DNA of 64,000 nt from Gammaproteobacteria bacterium (GTDB lineage: Bacteria; Pseudomonadota; Gammaproteobacteria; Ga0077536). A program made the translations under genes and the position numbers. The notes beneath the pieces were generated by a model. That model ran no database searches. It had not been told where the DNA came from and saw only the letters and a program-made list of their open reading frames with translations. Numbering within the stretch: the first letter of the stretch is position 1; each line of letters begins with the position of its first letter. This document shows, one piece after another, positions 4,792 to 15,663 of the stretch. Location: positions 41,188-105,187 of the forward strand of contig VGUA01000001.1 of the NCBI GenBank assembly GCA_016874535.1. The letters run 5' to 3'.

Positions 4792-6243
4792 TCAGCGGAG
4801 CGCAGACAACCGTTGTCGCGCCCGGACACACGCCTTACGCACTTGGCGTGGCGCCGTGCCGCCGAGATGGTCTCGCGCGGCCACCACGTTCGCGATGTCG
4901 AGCACCGGATAGACCGCCTCGGTGATCTGCGGATGCAGGGCCTGGAAATCGCCGAGCGGGAGCGCTTCCAGGCGGCATCGCCGCTCGATGGCGAGCTTCA
5001 CGGCTGTCCCCACGATGGCATGGGCATCACGGAAGGGCACGCCAATACGCACCAGATAGTCGGCAAAATCCGTGGCATTGGTAAAACCTGCTTCGGCCGC
5101 CTCACGCATGCGCTCGCGCCGCACCTCAAGGCTGGGGATGAGATCGCCAAACGCCCGCAGGCAGGCCTGCAAGGTATCCACCGTATCGAACAGGGGTTCC
5201 TTGTCTTCCTGATTGTCCTTGTTGTAGGCGAGGGGCTGACTCTTCATCAGCGTGATGAGTGACATCAAATGCCCCACCACGCGGCCACTCTTGCCACGCA
5301 CGAGCTCGGGCACATCAGGGTTCTTTTTCTGCGGCATCATGCTTGAGCCGGTGCAGAAGGCATCGGCCAGATCGATGAAGCCGAACTGCTGCGAATTCCA
5401 CAGCACGAGTTCCTCGGACATGCGTGAGAGATGCACCATGATGAGGGCGCCTGCCGCGGTGAACTCGATCGCAAAATCGCGATCGGAAACAGCATCCAGC
5501 GAATTCTCCGCCACGGCCGCAAACCCCAGCAGCTCTGCGGTCAGCTCGCGCCGGATGGGAAAGCTGGTGCCGGCCAGCGCGCCCGCGCCCAGCGGCAGCA
5601 CGTTGATCCTGCGCCGTGCGTCCTGCAGACGTTCGCGATCCCGGAGCAGCATCTCGAACCAGGCGAGCATGTGATGGCCGAAAGTGATCGGCTGCGCTGC
5701 CTGCAGATGCGTGAAGCCCGGCATCACGGTCGCGGCCTCGCGTTCGGCGAGATCGATGAGCGCGGCGAGCAAGGTATCGAGGCGTGCGCAGAGGCTGTCC
5801 ACCTGGTCGCGCAGGTATAGCCGAATATCGGTCGCGACCTGATCGTTGCGTGAACGTGCGGTATGCAGCTTCTTGCCGACGGCACCGATGCGAGCCACCA
5901 GCGCACTCTCGATGTTCATGTGGACATCCTCCAGTGCCACCGACCACTGGAACTTCCCGGCTTCGCATTCGGCGAGGATGTCGGTGAGACCGGCGACTAT
6001 CGCCGCGCACTCCTCCGCGCTCAGGATCCCGCTGGCAGCCAGCATGCTCGCGTGTGCAATGGAGCCCTTGATGTCCTGCGCGTAGAGTCGTTGGTCGAAA
6101 CCCACGGAGGCGGTGAATTCGGCGACGAACGCATCGGTGGGGCCTTCGAAGCGACCGCCCCAGGCCGAGTTGGCGCCGCTGGGAGCTCCGGAGAGGCTGG
6201 CCTCCGGGGCCTTGCTCGATGAGGGATGGGAGGAATCTGTCAC
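4792..6243 (-). CDS. argH: argininosuccinate lyase
   Basis: Conserved WGGRF...SRNDQ...GSS(M)MPQKKNPD fumarase/lyase signature. The ORF-track frame stays open to 6393, but the nearest start upstream of WGGRF is a GTG at 6243, and the earlier ATG or GTG starts would add 50+ unconserved residues. The true start is uncertain. Confidence 0.8.
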
Positions 6244-6413
6244 GCTGGCAATCGCTTGGGTGAATCGAACTCCAGTATATCCTAGTGATCCATGACCACC
6301 CGGTAGCCGTCCGGGACCACGCGGGACTCCCTCCGGACCACCCGGGATGGCCGGTCCCATGATGCCCGGAAGGGAAACAGCGCGTGGTCGCACGGATGAA
6401 AGGGAGCAGACGC

Positions 6414-7466
6414 ATGGATCTCACAAAGCGCAGTCAAACCGAGAGCTTTCTGCCCGATCTGTGCGGCACCCGCGCGCTGTTCGTGGTGGTGATGGTGTCC
6501 GAACTGCTGGTATTCGTGCTCGTGGTGGCCGATAGCGGGCTCACGCTCGCGGCCCTGCCGGATCTCGCCCTGCTCTCGCTTTACGTGCAGCTGCTGACGC
6601 TTTCCGCGGCAGCCATCCTGTGTCTTGCGCGGCCCCACCTCGGTCGTCTTCCGCCAGCCCGGGGTGCCGCCTTCGGCTACCTGCTGGTGCTTTGCCTGGT
6701 GTGCGAGGCTGCGTGGTGGGCCCTCAGTCCCGTACCCGGGGAGCTCAGCCTGATCGAGCTTTCACACCCCCAGTTCTTCGGTCGCACCCTGGTGGTGGGA
6801 GCCATCGTGAGTGCGCTAATCCTGCGGTTCTTCCACGTGCAGCACCGTTGGGAACGACAGGTGGCGGCAGAGGCCAGGGCCCGGCTCTGTGCCTTGCAGG
6901 CGCGTATCCGCCCGCATTTCCTGTTCAACTGCATGAATTCCATCGCCAGCCTCACCCGCAGCAATCCGGCGGCAGCGGAGCAGGCGGTGGAAAATCTGGC
7001 GGATCTGTTTCGCGCCAGCCTGAAGGAGGGCTCTGGCCTCGTGACGGTGGCGGAGGAATGCGAGCTCGCCTCGCGTTATCTCGACATCGAAGCCCTCCGG
7101 CTGGGTGATCGGCTGCGACTCAGTTGGGATGTCACGGCCCTGCCGCGCGACGCCGTGCTACCGCAGTTCACCCTGCAGCCCTTGCTCGAAAACGCGGTCC
7201 TGCGCGGCATCGAGCCGCTGCCCGCCGGGGGTGCCATTTCCATTGTCGGCCGGCGCGACCGCAGTGGCTGCCTGGCGCTTGCAGTCCACAATCCGCGTGA
7301 CGCGACATTCACTCGCACCGAGGGTCACCAGCTTGCACAGGAGAACGTCAGGCAGAGACTGGAAGCCTGCTTCGGTTCACGCGGCCGCCTGACCCTCGAA
7401 GAAACGCCAACCAGCTACACCGTGACCGTGCAGTTTCCCGCCATGAGCCGCGAGGCACTGGGGTGA
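6414..7466 (+). CDS. algZ: LytS/AlgZ(FimS)-type sensor histidine kinase (non-canonical HisKA_3-like)
   Basis: Multi-TM N-terminus and the [15 protein letters not shown]-box typical of the LytS-YehU-AlgZ family. A strong RBS (AGGGAG) lies 6 nt before the ATG at 6414. The stop overlaps the algR GTG (GTGA). Divergent from argH, as in the Pseudomonas argH-algZ-algR locus. Confidence 0.75.
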
Positions 7467-8203
7467 GAATCCTCATCGTCGATGACGAACCGCTGGCGCG
7501 CAGCCGTCTCCGCGCACAATTGGCCGAACTGGGCGTGGGTGAAGTCGTGGGGGAGGCCGGGGATGGCGCTGATGCGCTCGCCAAAATCGCGGCACTCGCG
7601 CCGGAAGTGTTGCTGCTGGATATCCGCATGCCGGTCATGGACGGACTTGAGCTGGTGCGCCATCTGGCCGGCCTGCCGCAGAGACCGGCCATCATCTTCA
7701 CGACCGCGCATGATGAACATGCACTTGCCGCCTTCGAGGCGAATGCAATCGACTACCTGCTGAAGCCCGTGCGTGCCAGCCGCCTGCGCGAGGCCCTCGA
7801 CCGTGCGGCCCTGTTCAACACAGCGCGTTGGCGGGCGCTCGATGCAGTTGGCGATGCGGTGGCCCGCACGCATCTCAGTGCGCTCAGCAAAGGCGGCCTG
7901 CGCGTGGTATCCGTACGCGAAGTCCGCTATTTCCAGGCCGATCAAGGTTACGTGGCGGTGCGGTATCCCGAGGGAGAACTGCTCATCGAAGATTCGCTGC
8001 GCGTGCTGGAACAGGAATTCGGCAGCCTGTTTCTGCGGATACACCGCAATACGTTGGCAGCGCTCGCCTGGATTACCGCACTGGAGCGTGATGCGGGAGG
8101 CAACCATTTCATCCGCGTGAGGGATGTGCCGGACAGCCTGCCGGTCAGTCGGCGCCTGTTGGGCGAGGTGAGGCGCCGCCTGCGCCATCTCGTGCTGCCC
8201 TGA
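7463..8203 (+). CDS. algR: LytTR-family response regulator (AlgR-like)
   Basis: Receiver domain (ILIVDDEPLARSRL...LLLDIRMP) followed by a C-terminal LytTR DNA-binding domain. Translationally coupled to the upstream kinase. Confidence 0.8.
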   Translation: MRILIVDDEPLARSRLRAQLAELGVGEVVGEAGDGADALAKIAALAPEVLLLDIRMPVMDGLELVRHLAGLPQRPAIIFTTAHDEHALAAFEANAIDYLLKPVRASRLREALDRAALFNTARWRALDAVGDAVARTHLSALSKGGLRVVSVREVRYFQADQGYVAVRYPEGELLIEDSLRVLEQEFGSLFLRIHRNTLAALAWITALERDAGGNHFIRVRDVPDSLPVSRRLLGEVRRRLRHLVLP

Positions 8204-8215
8204 AGGTCACGCGCC

Positions 8216-8944
8216 TCACTGCGAGAGGTCTCCCGCCACAGACTGCAGCACCGAGAGCGCAACCAGCGCCGCGGTTTCCGTGCGCAGTATGCGGGGACCG
8301 AGGCGTACCCCGCGACAACCGGCGGCTATCAGGCGTTCAATTTCCAGTGGATCGAGGCCGCCCTCGGGGCCAATCACGAGACTGACGGACACCTTGCCCA
8401 CCACCGCACTGGCAAGAGTCTCCCGAGCAACCGGTGTGAGAGTCAGCTTGAGTGCCGCGCTATCACCTGTCATGAACTCCTGCAGTGACTGAATCTCTTC
8501 CAGCACCGGCAGGCGATCGCGCCCCGATTGTTCGCAGGCGTGGGTGATGATGCCCTGCCAATGCGCCAGACGGCGTGCGGCGCGCTCGCCGTCCAGCTTG
8601 ACCTGGCTGCGGGCGCTGGCGAGCGGGACGATGCGGGTAACCCCCAGCTCAACGGCTTTCTGCAGGGTGTAATCCATGCGCTCACCGCGCGAGATCCCCT
8701 GGGCGAGTGTTATCTGCAAGGGGGATTCGCGGACGACTTCCGCCCACTCGCCAAGCACCACTTCGACGCGATCCCGCTGACAGGCTTCCAGCACGCCCGG
8801 GTATTCGCCGCCCCGACCATCAAAGAGGGTGAGCGTGCTGCCAACACGGGCGCGCAGGACCTCGCGCACCTTGTGCGCGGCGCCCTCCGGCAGGATCACG
8901 CGGGTCTGCGGACTGAGTGCGACGGGAACGAAGAGGCGGGGCAT
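8216..8944 (-). CDS. rsmE: 16S rRNA (uracil1498-N3)-methyltransferase RsmE
   Basis: 242-aa SPOUT-fold protein with the C-terminal IGPEGG..E motif and RsmE-like N-terminal PUA-like region. Confidence 0.85.
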   Translation of the reverse strand: MPRLFVPVALSPQTRVILPEGAAHKVREVLRARVGSTLTLFDGRGGEYPGVLEACQRDRVEVVLGEWAEVVRESPLQITLAQGISRGERMDYTLQKAVELGVTRIVPLASARSQVKLDGERAARRLAHWQGIITHACEQSGRDRLPVLEEIQSLQEFMTGDSAALKLTLTPVARETLASAVVGKVSVSLVIGPEGGLDPLEIERLIAAGCRGVRLGPRILRTETAALVALSVLQSVAGDLSQ

Positions 8945-8962
8945 GTGGTCCCGGCTCAGGGA

Positions 8963-9020
8963 GATTCAGGGTGATTCAAGCCGATTCGGGGCAATTGCGG
9001 CAGATGCAGGCCGATTCAGG
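8963..9020. promoter_or_regulatory. Phased direct repeats GATTCRGG (x3 at 10-bp spacing, 4th copy 30 bp later) in the rsmE upstream / rsd 3' region
   Basis: GATTCAGG at ~8963, GATTCAAG at ~8973, GATTCGGG at ~8983 and GATTCAGG at ~9013. The one-helical-turn phasing suggests a multimeric regulator binding site. Confidence 0.3.
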
Positions 9021-9489
9021 CGGCGCTGGCGGTTCCCGGCACCTCGCCCAGCATGGCGATGATCAGGACGTCCTCGAGCTCGATGCGGTTGGAAAGGTTT
9101 TCAGCCAGACGCGACAGATCCTGCGCGAGGTGATCATTCAGCAATTGCGGCGGGGCAGACTCATAGCGCTCGCTGAAGCCGACGGCGCCGTCCGTGATGG
9201 CGGCGATTCGGGGGTAGATTTCCCGCGCAGCCTCCACCACCGGCTGGCGACGCTCCGTACCTTCGGCGAGACGCTGGTAAAGCCCGAAATGCCCCGCCGC
9301 GATGTAATCGACCAGGATGCTGAGGAATTCATCCAGCGTGTTGCGCACCCGCTCATCCACGTTGTGCAGGTTGAGCTTGATGAGATCGGCCAGCAGGCTC
9401 AGCACCTGTCGACCTTCCCGCAGCAGATCCTGGATGAGTTTGCGGGTTGCCGGCCGCGCATAGGCGGGATCCTTGGTCTGCTTGTCCAT
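9016..9489 (-). CDS. rsd: Rsd/AlgQ-family regulator of sigma-70
   Basis: 157 aa from the second Met, with GGAGA 7 nt upstream. The block DEFLSILVDYIAAGHFGLYQRL aligns with E. coli Rsd DDFCQSLVDYLSAGHFSIYERI. Confidence 0.8.
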   Translation of the reverse strand: MDKQTKDPAYARPATRKLIQDLLREGRQVLSLLADLIKLNLHNVDERVRNTLDEFLSILVDYIAAGHFGLYQRLAEGTERRQPVVEAAREIYPRIAAITDGAVGFSERYESAPPQLLNDHLAQDLSRLAENLSNRIELEDVLIIAMLGEVPGTASAA

Positions 9490-9610
9490 CCGAGTTCTCC
9501 GGTGCTGGGGAAATTCCGCCCTCACACGCAGGCGGACATGGCGGCTTCAAATCGCCCGCTACTGTAGCCAAAGGCGTCGTCGAACGCACGCCCGCAAGGC
9601 CGTGGCTATA

Positions 9611-10990
9611 ATGCGGCGCATGGATATCGCGGGCTACACGATCACGCGCTGCATCGCGCAGGGCGGCATGGCCGCGGCCTATCTCGCGGAGCAGAAATCG
9701 CTGGCCCGCGCGGTCGTACTGAAGGTCCTCGATACCCGCACCAATACTTCTCCGGTCGCACTCCAGCGCTTCCTGAGCGAAGGGCGGCTGCTGGCGGCCT
9801 TGCAACATCCCCACGTGATCACCCTCTACGACATTGGTGCCGTGGATGATTTCGCCTATCTCTCCATGGAATACGTGCCGGGGGGCGATCTCAAGGAGCG
9901 CCTCGGGGCCGGCCCTCTGGCTCCCGAGGAGGCGCTCACCATTCTGGAGCAGGTTGCACGCGGGTTGGGTGCCGCACACGCTCGCGGCATCGTGCATCGG
10001 GACGTGAAGCCCGGGAACATCCTGTTCCGTGCCGACGGCACGGCGGTACTCAGCGACTTCGGCATCGCCAAATCGCTTACCGGCAACACCAACGTCACTT
10101 CCAGCGGGGCCTTCGTCGGCAGCCCCAACTACATGGCTCCCGAACAGGCCAGGCAGGTGGAGATCGATCACCGCGTGGACATCTACGCGCTCGGCGTGAT
10201 CTTTCACGAGATGCTCACCGGCCGGAAACCCTATGCGGCGGACTCGATTGTGGAAGTGATACACCGGCATGCGCATGCGCTGTTGCCGCGCCTTCCGGCC
10301 GATCTGGCGCTCTTTCAGGAACTGCTGGATCGGATGCTCGCGAAAGATCGCACCCAGCGCTTTGGCGATGTGCCGGCGCTGCTCCATTCCCTGGCTTCCA
10401 CCCGCAGTGCGTGGCGACTGCACTTGGCGCAAGGTCAGGGCGAACCGCTGCATGGCAGACCCGTGCGGGTTACACAGCCGGCTGTCGGTGTGCCGCGCGA
10501 GCGACGTCTGCGCCGTTGGCTCCACGGCGTGCTCGCACTCACGCTTTGCGCACACGCCGTGCTCTATGTGCTCGGGGAACGTCTGATGGCACCCTCCAGC
10601 CCATTGCCTGCCACCGCGAGCAACAGCCCGAGCGATCCAGGATCGCCGCAACAGCTGGCTGCGGTGCAGGCCTTGCTGGTGCAGGCTCCACCAGCCCAGC
10701 TGCGTCAAGGCGATGAACTCGAGCGTGCAGGAATGATCAAGGCGCTGCTCTGGCTGGCAGCCCAGGCTCTTGCCGAAGGAAGGCTCACCCTGCCGGCCCC
10801 TGGCAGTGCGCTGTACTACTACGCGCGAGCGTTGCAGCTGGATGCAAGGAATTTGGCTGCAGCGCGTGGCATTGCGGCGATTGCCGCGCGCTACGGGCAA
10901 CTCGCAGAGCACGCGACGCGGGCCGGTGATTCGGTGCTGGCCGAGGCCTACAGGCGCCTGGCCCGCCGGATTGAAGGCATGGCCGGTTGA
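9611..10990 (+). CDS. Hanks-type serine/threonine protein kinase with C-terminal TM/TPR-like region
   Basis: Kinase subdomains are present: VLK (ATP-binding Lys), HRDVKPGNIL, DFGIAK and APE. Start taken at the ATG at 9611, with an alternative ATG at 9620. The track ORF upstream extension has no homology. Confidence 0.8.
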   Translation: MRRMDIAGYTITRCIAQGGMAAAYLAEQKSLARAVVLKVLDTRTNTSPVALQRFLSEGRLLAALQHPHVITLYDIGAVDDFAYLSMEYVPGGDLKERLGAGPLAPEEALTILEQVARGLGAAHARGIVHRDVKPGNILFRADGTAVLSDFGIAKSLTGNTNVTSSGAFVGSPNYMAPEQARQVEIDHRVDIYALGVIFHEMLTGRKPYAADSIVEVIHRHAHALLPRLPADLALFQELLDRMLAKDRTQRFGDVPALLHSLASTRSAWRLHLAQGQGEPLHGRPVRVTQPAVGVPRERRLRRWLHGVLALTLCAHAVLYVLGERLMAPSSPLPATASNSPSDPGSPQQLAAVQALLVQAPPAQLRQGDELERAGMIKALLWLAAQALAEGRLTLPAPGSALYYYARALQLDARNLAAARGIAAIAARYGQLAEHATRAGDSVLAEAYRRLARRIEGMAG

Positions 10991-11026: not shown

Positions 11027-12388
11027 CTAGCGCTTCCCGGTAGGCTCAGGAGGTTCCAGGTGCACCAGCAGCGGTGCCGGTCCACTCTCGATGCGATGAA
11101 TGAGTTCCGTCTGCCGGTTGATCCCGGTCTTGTGGAAGATGTGCTTGAGATGGGTGCGCGCGGTGTTGACCGAAATCTGCAGCTCGTCTGCCGCGTCGTC
11201 CAGGGTCATCCCGTTGGTCATGAACTGCACCAGCTTCGCCTCGGTGTGGGTGAGGCCGTAGAGGCTCGTCAGCACGTCGAACGAGATCTGGCGCTGGGCG
11301 CCACTGTCGAACACGTATACCAGCACCATCGCAGGTTGCTCGCCCTCTGCCGGCGCAGGGACGGGCGCGATCATCAATTCCAGATTTGCGCTCGCGCTCG
11401 ATGAGCGCACCAGCATCACGCCGCTCGCCTTGTCCTCACCGGCCTGCGCCCGCTGCAGTGCAAGTTCCACGAGCTCGCGAAAGCGTTGGTCCTGTGCCTT
11501 GTCCGTGATACTCAGGATCTCATTGCGCAGCTCCAGGCCACGCTGCCGGGTGAGGGTATCGCGGGCACTGCGATTGCCATACTGCAGGCGTCTGGCGGCA
11601 TCGAGCACCAGTACGCCGTGCGGCACGGCATCCAGCGCCTTCAACAGCGCGCGATCGAGCCCGGAACGCTCGGGGGCGCGTCGCGTGCGCGCGGCAGCCA
11701 GGCGCAGCGCCAGTCCATAAGTCTGGCCCCGTGCATCCCGCAAAGGGGTGAGCGTGTCAGTGCATGATTCTGCGGGGCCCGAGCGCCCGCTGCGGGTGCG
11801 GACGAGCACTTCCTCCTGCCCGGTATTGATCACACGCATCACGGCATCCGCCGCAGCTTCCATCGACAGATCGTGGAGGCTTGCCAGCAGCTCGGCGAGC
11901 GGTCTGCCCACCCACTGCCTGCGCGGGATACCGGTCAGGTATTCAGCAGCCGCGTTGGCAAAACCGACCCGGCCTTCGTTGTCGGCCGTGATGACCCCCT
12001 CCTGATCCCGCTCATCTTGGGCCTGGGGGCCCGGTTCGCCGGGCGCGCCCGCGGGCCTGGCATGATTGAGCGCCAGATCGACGGCCGTGAGGAGATCCTT
12101 GGTGGTGAACGGTTTGTTGATGAACCCGGCGGGACGTGTGGCCCGGGCGCGCTCCAGCAGCTGCGCATCGACATGGGCCGACACATAGATCAACGGGAGA
12201 TCCGGGTGATGTTCGCGAATGCGGTGGGCCGCTTCGATGCCATCCATGCCTTCGCCGAGTCGTACATCCATGAGGACGAGATCCGGCTTGAGCTCGATCA
12301 CCTGTTCCAGCGCTTCGAAGCCATCCCGGGCGATTCCGGAGACGTCATAGCCAAGTCCGCGCAGGCGCAGTTTCAGCGCGCCTGCCAC
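11027..12388 (-). CDS. LuxR-family response regulator (receiver-PAS-HTH) with a disrupted receiver N-terminus
   Basis: Receiver core (LVLMDVRLGEGMDG...INKPF), a central PAS-like region and a C-terminal LuxR HTH (LTHTEAKLVQFMTNGMTLDDAADELQISVNTARTHLKHIFHKTG). The only in-frame start is the GTG at 12388. Immediately upstream lies a remnant MKK(I)LIV separated by an in-frame TAA and a frame offset. Confidence 0.65.
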   Translation of the reverse strand: MAGALKLRLRGLGYDVSGIARDGFEALEQVIELKPDLVLMDVRLGEGMDGIEAAHRIREHHPDLPLIYVSAHVDAQLLERARATRPAGFINKPFTTKDLLTAVDLALNHARPAGAPGEPGPQAQDERDQEGVITADNEGRVGFANAAAEYLTGIPRRQWVGRPLAELLASLHDLSMEAAADAVMRVINTGQEEVLVRTRSGRSGPAESCTDTLTPLRDARGQTYGLALRLAAARTRRAPERSGLDRALLKALDAVPHGVLVLDAARRLQYGNRSARDTLTRQRGLELRNEILSITDKAQDQRFRELVELALQRAQAGEDKASGVMLVRSSSASANLELMIAPVPAPAEGEQPAMVLVYVFDSGAQRQISFDVLTSLYGLTHTEAKLVQFMTNGMTLDDAADELQISVNTARTHLKHIFHKTGINRQTELIHRIESGPAPLLVHLEPPEPTGKR

Positions 12389-12455
12389 GGCGCGCTGGTC
12401 TTACACGATCAGGATTTTTTCATTGGCCAAACGGGATGACCCGTCGTGCACACAC

Positions 12456-13790
12456 CTAGTGGTCGTCCCTGAACTGCCGCTGCAGCAGTTCGCGGCGCTC
12501 CTGTGCGTCCACGGTCAGCGTTGCGATGGGGCGTGCCTCGAGGCGGCCGAGGCCGATCTCCTCGCCCGTCTCTTCGCAATAGCCATACGAGCCGTCTTCG
12601 ATACGTTTCAGCGCCTGCTCTATCTTGCTCAGGAGCTTTCGGTACCGGTCGCGCGTGCGCAGCTCGAGAATGTTGTCACTCTCGCGGCTCGCACGCTCGG
12701 CTTCGTCACCCACATCACGCGTTTCAGTGCGTAGATGTTCGAGGGTTTCCTGCGACTCGTTGATCAGATCCTGCCGCCAGTTTTCCAGTTTCTGCTTGAA
12801 GTACGCCAAGTGCTGGGCACTCATGTACTCCTCGCCGGGGGAGGGCCGATAGCCCTCGGGAAGTTTTATCTCGTCCAGATTGATGACCTTGCGAACAATA
12901 CTCACCGGCTTCGCTTCAGGCCTGGCGGGGGCCTTGCGGACCGGTTCTGATTTCAGTTTCCTGTCGGGGGTCGCCGGTGTCTTGGCGGCCACTACTTCGG
13001 GTTTTGCGGCCGCAGCCTTGGGGGCTTGCGGCAGGGCGGTTGGCTTTGAGACCGCAGCCTTGGCCGGGCTCGCGGGTACCGCCTGGGGTTTTGCATTCGG
13101 GGCCGCCACCTTGGCGGGTGTAGCCTTCGTTGCCGGAGCCTTGGCCGCCGCCGTCTTCACGGGCGCGGATTTGGCCGCAGGTCCTGTCGCTGCCTTGACC
13201 GGTGAAGCTTTGGCCGCCGATGCCTTGGGTGCAGCCGCCTTCGCAGGCACGGTTTTGACTGCAGGTTTGGCGGCAGGCTTTTTGGCCGGAGTCTTCGCTG
13301 GAGCTTTGGCCGCCGGCGCCTTCGCAGGCTTGGCAGCGGCTTTGGGCACTGCCTTGGCGACAGGCTTGGCAGCGGCTTTGGGCACCGCCTTGGCGACAGG
13401 CTTGGAAGCGGCTTTGGGCACCGCCCTGGCGACAGGCTTGGAAGCGGCTTTGGGCACTGCCTTGGCGACAGGCTTGGCAGCAGCTTTGGCCACCGGCTTG
13501 GCCGCTAGCTTCTTCGCGACCGCCTTTGGTGCGGCCTTGGCCGGGGCTTTCTTCGCCGGTGCAGGTTTTGCCGACTTGGCGGCAGGTTTGGGAGCAACCT
13601 TGGCAGCGGCCTTGGCTGCCGGGACTTTCTTCGCGGGTTTGGCGGCTGCGCTGGGCTTGGCCGGCGCCTTGCGGGCGGCCGAAGCAGATTTCTTGCTGGC
13701 CGGGGCCTTGGCTTTCGATGTTGCCACGCGCTTCCTCCGATCCGTTTCGAGATTCGCGGCAACTGCCGCCACGTTCCGAGTGACTGCCAT
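12456..13790 (-). CDS. dksA: DksA-domain protein (C-terminal 149 aa) fused in-frame to an N-terminal ~300-aa AKP/KPAA-repeat histone-H1/AlgP-like region
   Basis: The C-terminus aligns along its full length with E. coli DksA (PGEEYM..QLA.F...LE.WR..L, the CxxC...Cys4-like zinc ribbon with one Cys replaced, YGYCEETGEEIGLGRLEARP). No stop separates it from the upstream Lys/Ala/Pro repeat region, whose 36-bp DNA periodicity conserves 12-aa units (KPVAKAVPKAAA). The ATG at 13790 is preceded by AAGGTG. An alternative stand-alone DksA could start at the GTG at ~12905. Confidence 0.5.
   Translation of the reverse strand: MAVTRNVAAVAANLETDRRKRVATSKAKAPASKKSASAARKAPAKPSAAAKPAKKVPAAKAAAKVAPKPAAKSAKPAPAKKAPAKAAPKAVAKKLAAKPVAKAAAKPVAKAVPKAASKPVARAVPKAASKPVAKAVPKAAAKPVAKAVPKAAAKPAKAPAAKAPAKTPAKKPAAKPAVKTVPAKAAAPKASAAKASPVKAATGPAAKSAPVKTAAAKAPATKATPAKVAAPNAKPQAVPASPAKAAVSKPTALPQAPKAAAAKPEVVAAKTPATPDRKLKSEPVRKAPARPEAKPVSIVRKVINLDEIKLPEGYRPSPGEEYMSAQHLAYFKQKLENWRQDLINESQETLEHLRTETRDVGDEAERASRESDNILELRTRDRYRKLLSKIEQALKRIEDGSYGYCEETGEEIGLGRLEARPIATLTVDAQERRELLQRQFRDDH
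13327..13506. repeat. Tandem 36-bp repeats (about 5 copies, GGCTTGGCAGCGGCTTTGGGCACTGCCTTGGCGACA) encoding KPVAKAVPKAAS units
   Basis: Near-identical consecutive 36-mers with a few substitutions lie inside the N-terminal extension of the DksA-domain ORF. Confidence 0.8.
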
Positions 13791-14004
13791 ATTCAGCGGC
13801 GGCACCTTAATCATTTTCCCATGACAGCGCAACGACGCGGGTCGCGCGCTGGCTTTCACTCCCCCAACGCCTTTTAGTAGTATGCCGGCTGCTCTGGAGA
13901 CCTTCGTTGGGGGACGATCTCCGGACTTACTCTTCAGGATCAGACGAACTTCACGCGCCTCGGCCAGAACGAGCGAGCGAGCGCCGAGTTCGAGGAGCGA
14001 TTGA

Positions 14005-14343
14005 ATGAACAAGCGTTACATCCCGGGACTGCTCTCCAGTCTGCTCATCGCCCATGCCGGTTCGGTCATGGCGCAGGGCGCCTCAGCCGAGGGCGACGTG
14101 GTGGCTGGCCGCCTCGCCGCAGAAACCTGTCTCGGCTGCCATGCAGTCGAGGGCTACTTCAATGTGTATCCGTCCTACAAGGTGCCCAAACTCGGAGGAC
14201 AGCAGGCCGGTTACATCGCGTCAGCCCTCAAGGTCTACAAGGACGGGTCGCGCAAGCACGACACGATGCACGCCAACGCGGTTGCTCTCAGCGATGAGGC
14301 CATCGCCAACATCGCCGCCTATTTCGCCAGCCAGGGCAAGTGA
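14005..14343 (+). CDS. mono-haem c-type cytochrome (class I, c4/c553-like half)
   Basis: Signal peptide followed by a CLGCH haem-binding motif and a downstream Met ligand region. Confidence 0.8.
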   Translation: MNKRYIPGLLSSLLIAHAGSVMAQGASAEGDVVAGRLAAETCLGCHAVEGYFNVYPSYKVPKLGGQQAGYIASALKVYKDGSRKHDTMHANAVALSDEAIANIAAYFASQGK

Positions 14344-14388
14344 GCGGCAGCTGTCCGCACCGCTGCCAAGAATCCGGAGTATCCCAGC

Positions 14389-14739
14389 ATGATTTCACTG
14401 CGCCCCATCGTCCTTGCCGCCGGCCTCGCACTCTCAGTCCCCGCCCTGGCGACAGGAGAGGCAGCCGAAGGACCCGCCTTTGACCAGAAGCTCGCCGCTT
14501 GCGCCGCCTGTCATGGCGAGAATGGCGCCAAGCCCATCATGGCCGAATACCCGATTATCGCCGGTCAGTATGCCGACTATCTGGCGTCTGCACTGCGTGC
14601 CTACCGGGATGGTCGTCGCAACAACGCAGTGATGGCCTCGCAGCTGCTGGCACTGCAGCTCAGTGATTCCGATATCGACCGTCTCGCCGATCACTTCTCC
14701 AAACAGGCGAGCCCGTTGGCGGTACTCAAGGCTCGTTGA
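14389..14739 (+). CDS. mono-haem c-type cytochrome (class I)
   Basis: Signal peptide (LAAGLALSVPALA) and a CAACH motif. Paralogous to the upstream gene; together they resemble a split cytochrome c4. Confidence 0.8.
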   Translation: MISLRPIVLAAGLALSVPALATGEAAEGPAFDQKLAACAACHGENGAKPIMAEYPIIAGQYADYLASALRAYRDGRRNNAVMASQLLALQLSDSDIDRLADHFSKQASPLAVLKAR

Positions 14740-14839: not shown

Positions 14840-15556
14840 TCAGTCGACCACTTCTTCCAGGAAATTGAGCAGGCTCTGCCAAGATCGCCTGTCCGCTGTC
14901 TCGCTGTAGGCATTGCCGGTCTCCGGCTGGCGCGCTTCCGGATTGGTGAAGGCGTGCAGCGTCCGGCCATAGGCATGCAGCTGCCAGTCCGCATCGGCAC
15001 GGGTCATTTCCTGCGCAAAAGCCACCACCTTCTCTGGTGGACAAAGCGGATCTTCGTGTCCGTGCAGGGCGAGCACCTTGGCCCGGATGCTTTTGCCGGC
15101 AGGCAGGTTGTCCGGTGCATCGAGCAGCCCGTGGAAGCTCACCACGCCCTGTACCGCAGCCCCGCTGCGTGCCATGTCGAGCACGCCTAGGCCGCCAAAG
15201 CAGAATCCGATGGCCACGATGCGGCGGGGATCCACGCCCGGCTGGCGCGCAAAACAGGTGAGCGCAGCCTTGAGGCAATCTTGGAGTTTCGCCCTGTCAT
15301 CCAGAAAAGGCTGCATGAGCGCGGCATTCTCTGCCGGCCCGGTGCCGAGCACGCCGCGGCCGTAGAGATCCGCGGCAAACGCGGCGTAACCCCTGGCTGC
15401 CAGCGCGCGGGCACGGTTGCATTCAAAGGCGGAACGGCCAGCCCAGGCGTGGACGATGAGCACGCCGGGCAATGGTCCCTGCCGGTTTTCCGGAGCGCAG
15501 AGCAAGCCCTCGAGAAGAGTCTCCTCGTGGGTGTATTCAAGCAGCTTTTCCAGCAT
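14840..15556 (-). CDS. dienelactone hydrolase family protein
   Basis: alpha/beta-hydrolase with the nucleophile motif GFCFGG and DLH-like LIVHAWAG...HGHEDP blocks. Start taken at the Met preceded by GAGGA. Confidence 0.8.
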   Translation of the reverse strand: MLEKLLEYTHEETLLEGLLCAPENRQGPLPGVLIVHAWAGRSAFECNRARALAARGYAAFAADLYGRGVLGTGPAENAALMQPFLDDRAKLQDCLKAALTCFARQPGVDPRRIVAIGFCFGGLGVLDMARSGAAVQGVVSFHGLLDAPDNLPAGKSIRAKVLALHGHEDPLCPPEKVVAFAQEMTRADADWQLHAYGRTLHAFTNPEARQPETGNAYSETADRRSWQSLLNFLEEVVD

Positions 15557-15663
15557 TCCCTTTGTCCTCGCAACAAGCCCCGGGGCGACGAAGTCTGCAG
15601 GATCCCGAGGAGACAGAGAAGCCGACAATCAACTGCGGGTTGACGCTCCCTCCTGCATCACCA

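Follow-up and report, generated by a model that had tools for sequence, protein, structure and literature searches.

DksA is known from textbooks as ppGpp's partner, and almost all studies of its mechanism have used the 151-aa protein of Escherichia coli. Residues 1-18 of this protein are dispensable, and a D-to-E change at D74 inactivates it, whereas the D80E tip variant of Rhodobacter sphaeroides DksA still works. The four positions that are Cys in E. coli read C/T/T/A in the R. sphaeroides protein (RSP2654, 158 aa), which has been validated in vitro as a zinc-independent DksA that binds to the secondary channel and works synergistically with ppGpp. DksA2 of Pseudomonas aeruginosa (solved chain 136 aa) is also zinc-independent and reads C/T/C/A at the same positions.

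A DksA with a long N-terminal extension is known from Xanthomonas euvesicatoria, where Abendroth et al. (2017, PMC5559785) lengthened the annotation of XCV2556 from 147 to 256 aa. The long form was proven by the MS peptide AAPAAAKPAAKPVASK and by start-codon mutagenesis, and it starts at a GTG followed by AAKKP; a processed, shorter DksA was also seen in native-promoter constructs. An antisense artefact, XCV2557, had been annotated opposite the gene, and its deletion was later proposed. The accessible part of the report treats the case as an annotation correction and is silent on the nature of the extension. In X. citri, a member of this long-form lineage, a dksA mutant shows stringent-type and virulence phenotypes.

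Basic tails of similar kind are also carried by other bacterial proteins. Streptomyces coelicolor DdbA (SCO2075) has an N-terminal histone H1-like tail that binds and condenses DNA, an activity that the DksA-like half lacks (Aldridge et al. 2013, PMC3643593); the protein was proposed to couple nucleoid state with transcription, and its tail length varies among orthologs (PMC3643593). The KPAA tail of AlgP (AlgR3) from P. aeruginosa binds DNA, localises to polyphosphate granules and spaces them, and the disordered KPAA region of PhaF binds specific mRNAs.

The window analysed here, a stretch of 64,000 nucleotides from a gammaproteobacterial contig (VGUA01000001.1), contains a gene of comparable design. 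We consider it probable, at roughly 0.7, that it encodes one 423-aa DksA with a long basic tail that acts as a polyanion-binding arm. The long-tailed design as such occurs widely in uncultured and Xanthomonas-like bacteria and resembles DdbA; the locus is interesting, not new. Like the genes of X. euvesicatoria and other Lysobacterales, it has an in-frame K/A/P-rich extension before the DksA core, and as in X. euvesicatoria the GTG start is followed by A-A/T-K/S-K and the antisense strand has a spurious ORF. However, its tail is about 2.5 times longer than that of X. euvesicatoria (274 versus about 109 aa) and has a recent 36-bp array, its core is only 62-69% identical to those of the Lysobacterales loci, and its neighbours are cytochrome c, REC-PAS-LuxR and algQ genes instead of cysS and pyrC.

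The likeness to DdbA, drawn from the published description of that protein, lies in the architecture and probably in the mode of action. DdbA differs in belonging to another phylum and being reported as streptomycete-specific, and is therefore probably an independent fusion. It has a 93-aa tail of (S/T)(A/T)AKK pentapeptides where the window protein has repeats of AKPVAKAVPKAA, its locus is ftsZ-proximal in contrast to the neighbourhood found here, and it still has the Cys4 zinc finger in its core; the window core reads C/T/T/A and scores above the proteobacterial dksA equivalog cutoff. Judged from these sequence features, membership of the window protein in the DdbA family, or orthology with it, is not supported. 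With AlgP it shares a disordered Lys/Ala/Pro tail, alike in length and composition and encoded by short direct repeats that differ in number from isolate to isolate, and a position near algQ and algR. In AlgP, however, the tail is C-terminal, follows a 124-aa helical domain unrelated to DksA and holds at least 25 perfect KPAA units, whereas the N-terminal tail of the window protein holds only 2. By sequence, the two tails are compositional analogues and not demonstrable homologues. RSP2654 and DksA2 differ from the window protein in having no long basic tail.

Reading frame, start codon and DksA core

The minus strand is open throughout 12456..14012 (518 aa counted from the first TTG), and within it we place the coding sequence of the long DksA at 12456..13727 (423 aa plus stop, GTG start, 43.8 kDa, pI 10.4), on the basis of ortholog alignment, Shine-Dalgarno context and substitution patterns. 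The start codon is most likely the GTG at 13727 (13725..13727). The product then begins M-ATSKAKAPASKK and aligns with the MAK.K and VAAKK starts of relatives. A GGAGG (13734..13738) stands 6 nt upstream of the GTG and is conserved in the related contigs L081, L084 and L085; from this motif through the first 17 codons, the three strains compared (window, L081 and L084) do not differ. The earlier note had placed the start at an ATG at 13790-13788 accompanied by AAGGTG at 13808-13803. Both motifs exist, but the likely start lies 63 nt further downstream. Neither ATG 13790 nor ATG 13814 was retained as a start, since 13728-13814 lacks codon bias and GTG 13727 marks the place where orthologs start. 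The 87 nt from ATG 13814 to this GTG have variable sites of 5/2/4 by codon position, which is non-coding behaviour, and ATG 13790 is replaced by GTG in L084.

Upstream, the gene shares an intergenic region (13728..14004) with a divergent cytochrome c gene. This non-coding stretch is conserved to an unusual degree, with 28 of 269 columns variable among the three strains versus 64 of 149 third positions in the core, and has no codon periodicity; presumably it holds promoters and operators. A search of this conserved leader for structured RNAs or riboswitches gave no Rfam match at E <= 1, and its fold z-score (0.29) is not significant. Scans of 12300-14100 yielded zero matches to the sigma-70 consensus, and terminator-like matches no commoner than in shuffled sequence.

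An open frame in a single sequence is only modest evidence for translation, because when the 822-nt tail was shuffled 20,000 times by mononucleotides, 152 of the products (0.76%) likewise had no in-frame stop; the case for a translated fusion becomes decisive only when comparative data are added. Among window, L081 and L084, the variable columns of the core fall 5/2/64 by codon position (64 of 71 at third positions). In the tail 49% of the columns vary, yet the frame stays open and all 15 indels within the ORF are multiples of 3. Moreover, 28 genome loci from Lysobacterales, Woeseiaceae, Chromatiales and Burkholderiales have in-frame basic tails of 99-327 aa, and their starts, mostly preceded by a Shine-Dalgarno motif, read M/V-A-(A/K)-K-K. 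We defined a Xanthomonas-type long DksA by an in-frame basic extension of at least 100 aa and a Shine-Dalgarno-preceded M/V-A-(A/K/T)-(K/S)-K start. The window gene is of this type, with GGAGG-N6-GTG followed by ATSKAKAPASKK and a basic K/A/P-rich tail of 274 aa and charge +61, and the pattern of Shine-Dalgarno motif, start motif and tail recurs in L004, L007, L026, L027, L038 and others. On this comparative sequence evidence, tail and core are one translated reading frame.

The last 149 aa (12459..12905, minus strand) were held by the earlier note to form a complete DksA, and this is borne out. They comprise an N-terminal region, a coiled-coil hairpin, a zinc-free globular region (C/T/T/A) and a C-terminal helix, match the Pfam models DksA_N (PF21157, E 4.9e-27; 94.4 bits, cutoff 27) and zf-dksA_traR (PF01258, E 2.8e-11; 43.6 bits, cutoff 24.9), and reach 144.5-148.4 bits against NCBIfam TIGR02420 dksA (cutoff 115.5), which places them in the DksA family. 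The alignment with E. coli DksA (1TJL) is gapless (E 3.6e-34), and AlphaFold2 predicts a two-helix hairpin at 304-337 and 345-377. The acidic coiled-coil tip DVGDEAERA is invariant in 17 relatives and contains a literal DxxDxA (DVGDEA). The residues that face D71/D74/A76 of E. coli when the two proteins are aligned without gaps are, however, D/E/A; the window protein thus naturally has Glu at the D74 equivalent, where RSP2654 tolerates a D-to-E change. The Cys4 zinc finger of E. coli (C114, C117, C135, C138) is replaced by C/T/T/A, exactly as in RSP2654. In its sequence the core thus has the hallmarks of a working zinc-independent DksA.

Composition, repeats and distribution of the tail

The N-terminal tail (12906..13724, minus strand; 274 aa counting the start codon) contains 104 Ala, 60 Lys and 47 Pro but only 4 Asp plus Glu and no aromatic residues, and has a pI of 11.6. 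Lys accounts for 22%, Arg for 1.8% and Asp plus Glu for 1.5%, compared with 2.9%, 8.0% and 11% in the other proteins of the same 63% GC window. The net charge of such tails lies between +0.10 and +0.44 per residue across loci of 50-72% GC. The tail is predicted to be disordered, since the AlphaFold2 model shows no secondary structure and pLDDT is below 50 over most of residues 1-300. The earlier note's description of a basic extension in frame with DksA is upheld, while its length, put at about 300 aa, was too high.

Searched alone, the tail gave no match to Pfam or NCBIfam at E <= 10, and among 5.8 billion proteins it retrieved only its own orthologs and marginal low-complexity matches, with neither a histone H1 relative nor an AlgP at E <= 1e-3. 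The histone H1-like HC2 model PF07382 did not match the window tail even at E <= 10; precomputed PF07382 matches exist for some homologues and reflect composition. Thus the label 'AlgP-like' fits composition and neighbourhood but does not extend to detectable homology. Next to the core, a linker segment RKLKSEPVRKAPA (12924..12962, minus strand) contains a semi-conserved K.K.EP..K motif. It is missing in the same-species contig L085 through a 39-bp in-frame deletion flanked by CAGG microhomology.

Within the tail lies an array of 36-bp tandem units (13325..13502, minus strand), each encoding the 12-aa unit AKPVAKAVPKAA; Tandem Repeats Finder reports 4.9 copies with 92% matches, no indels and a score of 300. 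The substitutions between units are conservative, as the earlier note had read them (A/S, K/R and one synonymous GCA/GCG), but its notion of a tail made of these repeats was too wide, as the array encodes only about 60 aa of it. The suspected length variation was found: L085, with just 2 mismatches to the window gene over 1,344 aligned nt, has 6.9 copies (+72 bp, in frame). Copy number thus differs between strains, and since the 36-bp unit is a multiple of 3, this is expected to modulate length and not to switch the gene on and off. Both the +72 bp variant and the 39-bp deletion are frame-neutral, and a phase-variable contingency locus is not indicated by these variants. Multiple-of-3 indels would also be mechanically favoured in DNA made of 12- and 36-bp units. 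Metagenome assemblies are interrupted by the repeats, and several related contigs stop inside the tail. P0269 (234 aa), considered as a short-tail allele, is merely a truncated gene call identical to the window. In sum, tandem duplications and deletions that respect the frame make the tail evolve fast, but its charge and composition persist.

An unbiased search with the core only was assessed on its 150 nearest representatives of 50%-identity clusters: 72 of them have an N-terminal extension of at least 60 aa, 54 of these 72 have at least 20% Lys plus Arg, and their median Asp plus Glu content is 3%. Wenzhouxiangella, the closest named genus, has no tail, with a stop 2-52 codons upstream of the core, and the tail is hence dispensable for DksA function as such. 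A long, basic, disordered N-terminal tail is therefore a common feature of proteobacterial DksA, including that of the plant pathogens in Xanthomonas, and one that has been recurrently gained or lost. Cultured carriers include Arenimonas daejeonensis KACC 14631 and Lentisalinibacter orientalis.

Possible functions of the tail

In the reading that we favour, the coiled coil would insert into RNA polymerase's secondary channel, as in E. coli, and the tail would extend from the dispensable, solvent-facing N-terminus at the rim of the channel as a non-specific polyanion-binding arm. The 'nucleoid-binding' role given to the tail by the earlier note, or more widely its binding to DNA or another polyanion, is inferred by analogy with DdbA, AlgP and PhaF. 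By the example of DdbA, AlgP and the tail of histone H1, DNA would be the likeliest ligand, although RNA or polyphosphate may serve as well. With such a tail, DksA would stay enriched on the nucleoid, close to polymerase engaged in transcription, and could there couple DNA compaction to stringent-type control. The repeat number (4.9 versus 6.9) would shift the tail in steps of 12 residues (+3 charges each) while the gene stays on.

Several alternatives to a translated, polyanion-binding tail were weighed. One, also raised by the earlier note, is a stand-alone 149-aa DksA started at the in-frame GTG at 12905-12903, in which the repeat region would be an untranslated leader that merely happens to be open. 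Such a codon does exist, GC-rich and T-poor DNA is fairly often open (the 0.76% of shuffles given above), and the original annotation of X. euvesicatoria dksA was similarly short (147 aa). Yet this GTG reads GTA in L081 and has no preceding Shine-Dalgarno motif, for which reasons we rejected it as the start. The frame survives 15 indels and about 30 lineages, no stop separates tail from core in any tail-carrying relative, the conserved Shine-Dalgarno and start motif sit at the far end of the tail, and MS and mutagenesis showed that in Xanthomonas the short form is not the primary product. We thus regard the leader reading as very improbable and the alternative of a true fusion as well founded. 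Another idea is that the tail is a regulated pro-region, whose cleavage releases an active short DksA and so lets proteolysis control activity or level. Disordered basic tails make good protease substrates. The processed form in X. euvesicatoria suggests that some of the DksA molecules may lose their tail, but the mutagenesis in that species gives the full-length form as the major product, and we consider a pro-region quite improbable.

A translated tail could also lack a specific function and be a drifting low-complexity expansion, produced by replication slippage and tolerated at a permissive N-terminus. Its very fast turnover (49% variable columns among close relatives) would agree with this, as would the lineage-specific repeats, the copy-number variation between strains, the L085 deletion that removes the semi-conserved linker motif, the complete loss in Wenzhouxiangella and the dispensable N-terminus of E. 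coli DksA. However, Lys is enriched about 7-fold against GC pressure and favoured over Arg, the reverse of the genome background, while acidic and aromatic residues are nearly absent. Lineages with GC contents of 50-72% keep similar tails, as do roughly half of the DksA clusters closest to this one, and equivalents occur on unrelated RNA polymerase-associated proteins, namely DdbA, another DksA/TraR clade (P0272) and a sigma-70 factor (P0271). A tail without function is therefore rather improbable in our view. A further reading accepts a working tail but has it bind mainly RNA or polyphosphate, with DksA placed at polyphosphate granules or on nascent or 5'-UTR RNA. This would accord with the granule localisation of AlgP and the mRNA binding of PhaF. 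An algQ homologue lies near the gene, one study linked P. aeruginosa AlgQ to polyphosphate levels, and polyphosphate accumulation in E. coli is reportedly under DksA regulation. In contrast, DdbA, the closest architectural analogue, binds DNA, and the tail has just the two perfect KPAA motifs; we take RNA or polyphosphate as the main ligand to be unlikely.

Should the tail indeed tether DksA to one of these polyanions (DNA, RNA or polyphosphate), current models of how the protein reaches RNA polymerase, and of the way in which the state of the nucleoid acts on stringent control, would have to be extended. It is conceivable, though unlikely, that DksA does not diffuse freely as a secondary-channel factor, as it does in E. 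coli, in many Proteobacteria (roughly half of the DksA clusters closest to this one) but is held on the nucleoid, polyphosphate or a condensate by a histone H1-like tail, with strain-level repeat number tuning both the retention and, through it, the set-point of stringent control.

Gene neighbourhood and antisense frame

The algR/algQ-like neighbourhood described in the earlier note is indeed present in the window, as argH (4792-6393, minus strand), an algZ-type His_kinase (6384-7466, plus strand), REC-LytTR (7463-8203, plus strand) and Rsd_AlgQ (9016-9525, minus strand). Because the order argH-algZ-algR...algQ...K/A/P-tailed gene echoes the algP-algR/algQ linkage of Pseudomonas, one might speculate that the tails of AlgP and of the window DksA share an origin by local domain shuffling.

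Opposite the tail, a G/A/L-rich shadow ORF of 314 aa (12880..13824, plus strand) mirrors the tail codons and is not a gene. Long dksA genes are easily mis-annotated in this way, as a short DksA plus a false antisense ORF. A poly-A frameshift considered at the 5' end of the downstream regulator was discarded, as relatives start at TTG; the true lesion there is a GAA-to-TAA nonsense change at codon 9. When the window was searched for a further DksA/TraR gene, the sole weak match (E 0.06), located near 37.95 kb, was a small Cys-rich ORF that resembles a bfd-type ferredoxin and adjoins a bacterioferritin-like ORF.

Reading frame and translation of long dksA

The minus-strand frame from 14012 to 12456 is open, and its last 149 codons encode a complete DksA, as the earlier note had proposed. 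This core matches both Pfam models (DksA_N and zf-dksA_traR), scores 144-148 bits against NCBIfam TIGR02420 (cutoff 115.5) and gives a gap-free alignment with E. coli DksA (PDB 1TJL; E = 3.6e-34). A Lys/Ala/Pro-rich, coding-like stretch is located upstream with no stop in between, and the repeat region is thus joined to DksA as previously described. Shuffling the 822-nt tail 20,000 times gave 152 sequences free of in-frame stops, and the open frame by itself is only modestly unlikely. The E. coli zinc ligands C114, C117, C135 and C138 are aligned with C/T/T/A, exactly the pattern of R. sphaeroides DksA (RSP2654), which binds the secondary channel, makes open complexes less stable, acts in synergy with ppGpp and is still active as the tip variant D80E. 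The coiled-coil tip DVGDEAERA is invariant in 17 relatives, Glu occupies the D74-equivalent position in the gapless alignment, and AlphaFold2 predicts helices 304-337 and 345-377 with the loop of residues 338-344 connecting them. The core (pI 5.15) can be assigned by its sequence to the validated zinc-free type of DksA. Residues 1-18 at the N-terminus of E. coli DksA are dispensable, and hence an N-terminal appendage is plausibly compatible with RNAP binding.

L081 and L084, the two relatives closest in protein sequence, were aligned to the window at the DNA level. Third codon positions account for 64 of the 71 variable columns in the core; in the tail, 49% of columns are variable, all indels (15/15) are multiples of three and the frame stays open. 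The 87 nt from the conserved ATG 13814 to GTG 13727 behave as non-coding (5, 2 and 4 variable sites by codon position). All three sequences are identical from GGAGG (13738-13734) to the 17th codon after GTG 13727, and homologous proteins start MAK(A/P/S)K.K, aligned with V-ATSKAKAPASKK at this GTG. The earlier candidates, ATG 13790 (with AAGGTG at 13808-13803) and an internal GTG 12905 for a stand-alone DksA, are present in the sequence but not conserved, being GTG in L084 and GTA in L081, respectively. From this, together with the substitutions in 13814-13727 that lack codon bias, the identity from GGAGG to codon 17 and the homologue starts, we place the start at GTG 13727 and reject the other two. 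This gives a protein of 423 aa (274-aa tail, 149-aa core), translated from one gene. The antisense ORF 12880-13824 (+; 314 aa, G/A/L-rich) mirrors the tail codons and is an artefact.

The same tail type and start motif are found in the long DksA of X. euvesicatoria. In that proteogenomic study, peptides are reported upstream of the annotated dksA start, the gene is re-annotated from 147 to 256 aa, a processed DksA variant is noted, and the antisense gene XCV2557, equivalent to the shadow ORF in the window, is proposed for deletion (Abendroth et al. 2017, PMC5559785). Its supplement gives the diagnostic peptide as AAPAAAKPAAKPVASK and a mutagenesis primer in which the used GTG is followed by GCT GCT AAA AAA CCT (AAKKP). 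Moreover, Streptomyces DdbA (SCO2075), reported as streptomycete-specific, joins a 93-aa H1-like N-terminal domain, which binds and condenses DNA (EMSA, AFM), to a DksA-like C-terminal domain (Aldridge et al. 2013, PMC3643593). Tailed DksA has experimental confirmation in Xanthomonas and a functional parallel in Streptomyces, and is therefore an already-known type.

Composition and length variation of the tail

The tail consists largely of A (104), K (60) and P (47), without aromatic residues, Cys or His (pI 11.6, net charge +61). Its K, R and D+E contents are 22%, 1.8% and 1.5%, against 2.9%, 8.0% and 11% in the other proteins of the window (63% GC); this composition is maintained against mutational bias, indicating compositional selection. 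AlphaFold2 gives no secondary structure in the tail (pLDDT < 50 for most of residues 1-300), which is predicted to be disordered. No Pfam or NCBIfam model matched the tail alone at E <= 10, AlgP was not found in a tail-only search of 5.8 billion proteins, and only two perfect KPAA motifs occur; hence the suggested likeness to AlgP holds for composition but not for homology. That search returned the tail's own orthologs and otherwise marginal matches. Among the latter, P0271 is a primary sigma factor (Sigma70 region 1.2 match) with a K/A/P-rich N-terminal tail, and P0272 belongs to a distinct DksA/TraR-family clade (YGVCRVTG...-type core) with a KPAA N-terminal tail; together they suggest repeated, independent tail addition to RNA-polymerase-associated proteins.

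The 36-bp tandem units with conservative substitutions were recovered by Tandem Repeats Finder as 4.9 copies at 13325-13502 (92% matches, no indels, score 300). They encode AKPVAKAVPKAA and differ by A/S and K/R exchanges and one synonymous change. The exact unit is present in one metagenome contig of the same species, L085; over 1,344 aligned nt, its gene carries 2 substitutions relative to that of the window. There the array has 6.9 units (+72 bp, 24 aa), 39 bp corresponding to 12924-12962 (RKLKSEPVRKAPA, flanked by CAGG microhomologies) are missing, and the product is 434 rather than 423 aa. Repeat number in the tail is thus polymorphic in frame, as had been anticipated, and because both changes keep the frame they represent length modulation, not on/off phase variation. 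Analogous repeat-number rearrangements occur in AlgP of clinical isolates, and in more distant relatives the repeats are of other, lineage-specific kinds. A linker motif at the tail-core junction, K.K.EP..K (12924-12962; columns ~418-432 in the alignment of relatives), is semi-conserved in most close relatives and is exactly the segment lost in L085.

Distribution and possible role of the tail

We scanned one genome per species and followed every DksA match (80 loci) upstream as far as the first stop. In-frame K/A/P- or K-rich tails of 100-270 aa were observed in Lysobacterales (Arenimonas daejeonensis, Chiayiivirga, Aquimonas and Lysobacter), Woeseiaceae and Lentisalinibacter, Chromatiaceae, Rariloculaceae and several Burkholderiales. 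In most tailed loci the start follows an SD sequence and reads M/V-A-(A/K)-K-K, with GTG as start codon in many Lysobacterales. The stop codon sought between repeats and core is thus lacking in many lineages, but lies 2-52 codons upstream of the tailless core in Wenzhouxiangella, whose core shows the highest identity among named genera, and in most alphaproteobacteria. When only the core served as query in an unbiased HMMER search of 1.84 billion cluster representatives, N-terminal extensions of at least 60 aa were seen in 72, and of at least 100 aa in 57, of the 150 nearest clusters evaluated. At least 20% K+R is seen in 54 of the 72 (median D+E 3%), and the remainder appear to be miscalled starts or fusions. 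Four contigs of related genomes (L001, L002, L003 and L052) end inside the tail region, consistent with repeats breaking short-read assemblies, and for this reason tail lengths and frequencies are probably underestimated in MAG-derived protein sets. The architecture is abundant in databases, mostly labelled plain DksA; this commonness is under-appreciated, and we infer the function of proteobacterial tails by analogy.

The core would act within the secondary channel of RNAP, and the tail would project from the channel rim, binding polyanions non-specifically, most likely DNA; it may retain DksA at the nucleoid, or link compaction with transcription, a role proposed for DdbA. DNA is a known ligand of such tails in DdbA, AlgP peptides and P. 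putida PhaF, but RNA or polyP could take its place, since AlgP also binds polyphosphate granules and P. aeruginosa PhaF specific mRNAs. A neutral, tolerated expansion is less likely, given a composition held against mutational bias and a net charge of +0.10 to +0.44 per residue kept over 28 loci of 50-72% GC. The tail might also be a cleavable pro-region, for which the processed X. euvesicatoria variant speaks. Between the two alternatives of the earlier note, the in-frame indels, the conserved start and the Xanthomonas precedent favour the fusion, and a short DksA behind an untranslated leader is essentially excluded by these and by the loss of the internal GTG in L081.

Gene neighbourhood and flanking DNA

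The long dksA (12456-13727, -) is preceded in the window by argH (4792-6393, -), an algZ-type histidine kinase (6384-7466, +), an algR-like REC-LytTR gene (7463-8203, +), rsmE (8216-8944, -), Rsd/AlgQ (9016-9525, -), a Ser/Thr kinase (9473-10990, +) and a REC-PAS-LuxR gene (11027-12388, -), and followed by two divergent cytochrome c genes (14005-14739, +) and a dienelactone hydrolase (14840-15628, -). Since the algR-like and Rsd/AlgQ genes are present and the order is kept in L081, the remark on an algR/algQ-like neighbourhood was correct. The order echoes Pseudomonas, where algP is linked with algR and algQ, and that of 4792-9525 presumably matches the argH-algZ-algR region there. The K/A/P-tailed dksA is three genes beyond algQ, a positional echo of algP that might reflect shared ancestry.

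The REC-PAS-LuxR regulator (within 11027-12430, minus) lies 25 nt downstream of dksA, with which it was probably co-transcribed. Its start is TTG in L081 and L084 (M-ANEKILIVEDQRAV). In the window and L085, GAA is changed to the nonsense codon TAA at the acidic-pocket Glu (12401-12403), which is not a sequencing error because two independent assemblies share it; the regulator is either a pseudogene or is re-initiated at GTG 12388, in which case it lacks strand beta-1 and the acidic pocket.

The 277 bp between dksA and the cytochrome c genes (13728-14004) vary in 10.4% of columns among the three strains, against 43% of core third positions, being more conserved than synonymous sites and free of codon periodicity. 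They gave no Rfam match, significant RNA fold or sigma-70 consensus match, and are probably dense regulatory DNA. A (CGCT)n repeat at ~13970-13983 is shorter in L084 (2.5 units) and L081 (1.5 units) than in the window and L085 (~3.5 units each); its copy number could alter the spacing of the divergent promoters. In Woeseiaceae and Chromatiales (L042, L048, L040, L031, L044, L043 and L059), a conserved TATAAT (often TGTATAAT) is located ~40-60 nt upstream of the long-dksA start, followed by a GC-rich CCCGCGCT; Lysobacterales have GGCTATAACACGCG in its place. TATAAT with CCCGCGCT resembles the -10 element and GC-rich discriminator of promoters under stringent control, and DksA/ppGpp autoregulation might lie behind it.
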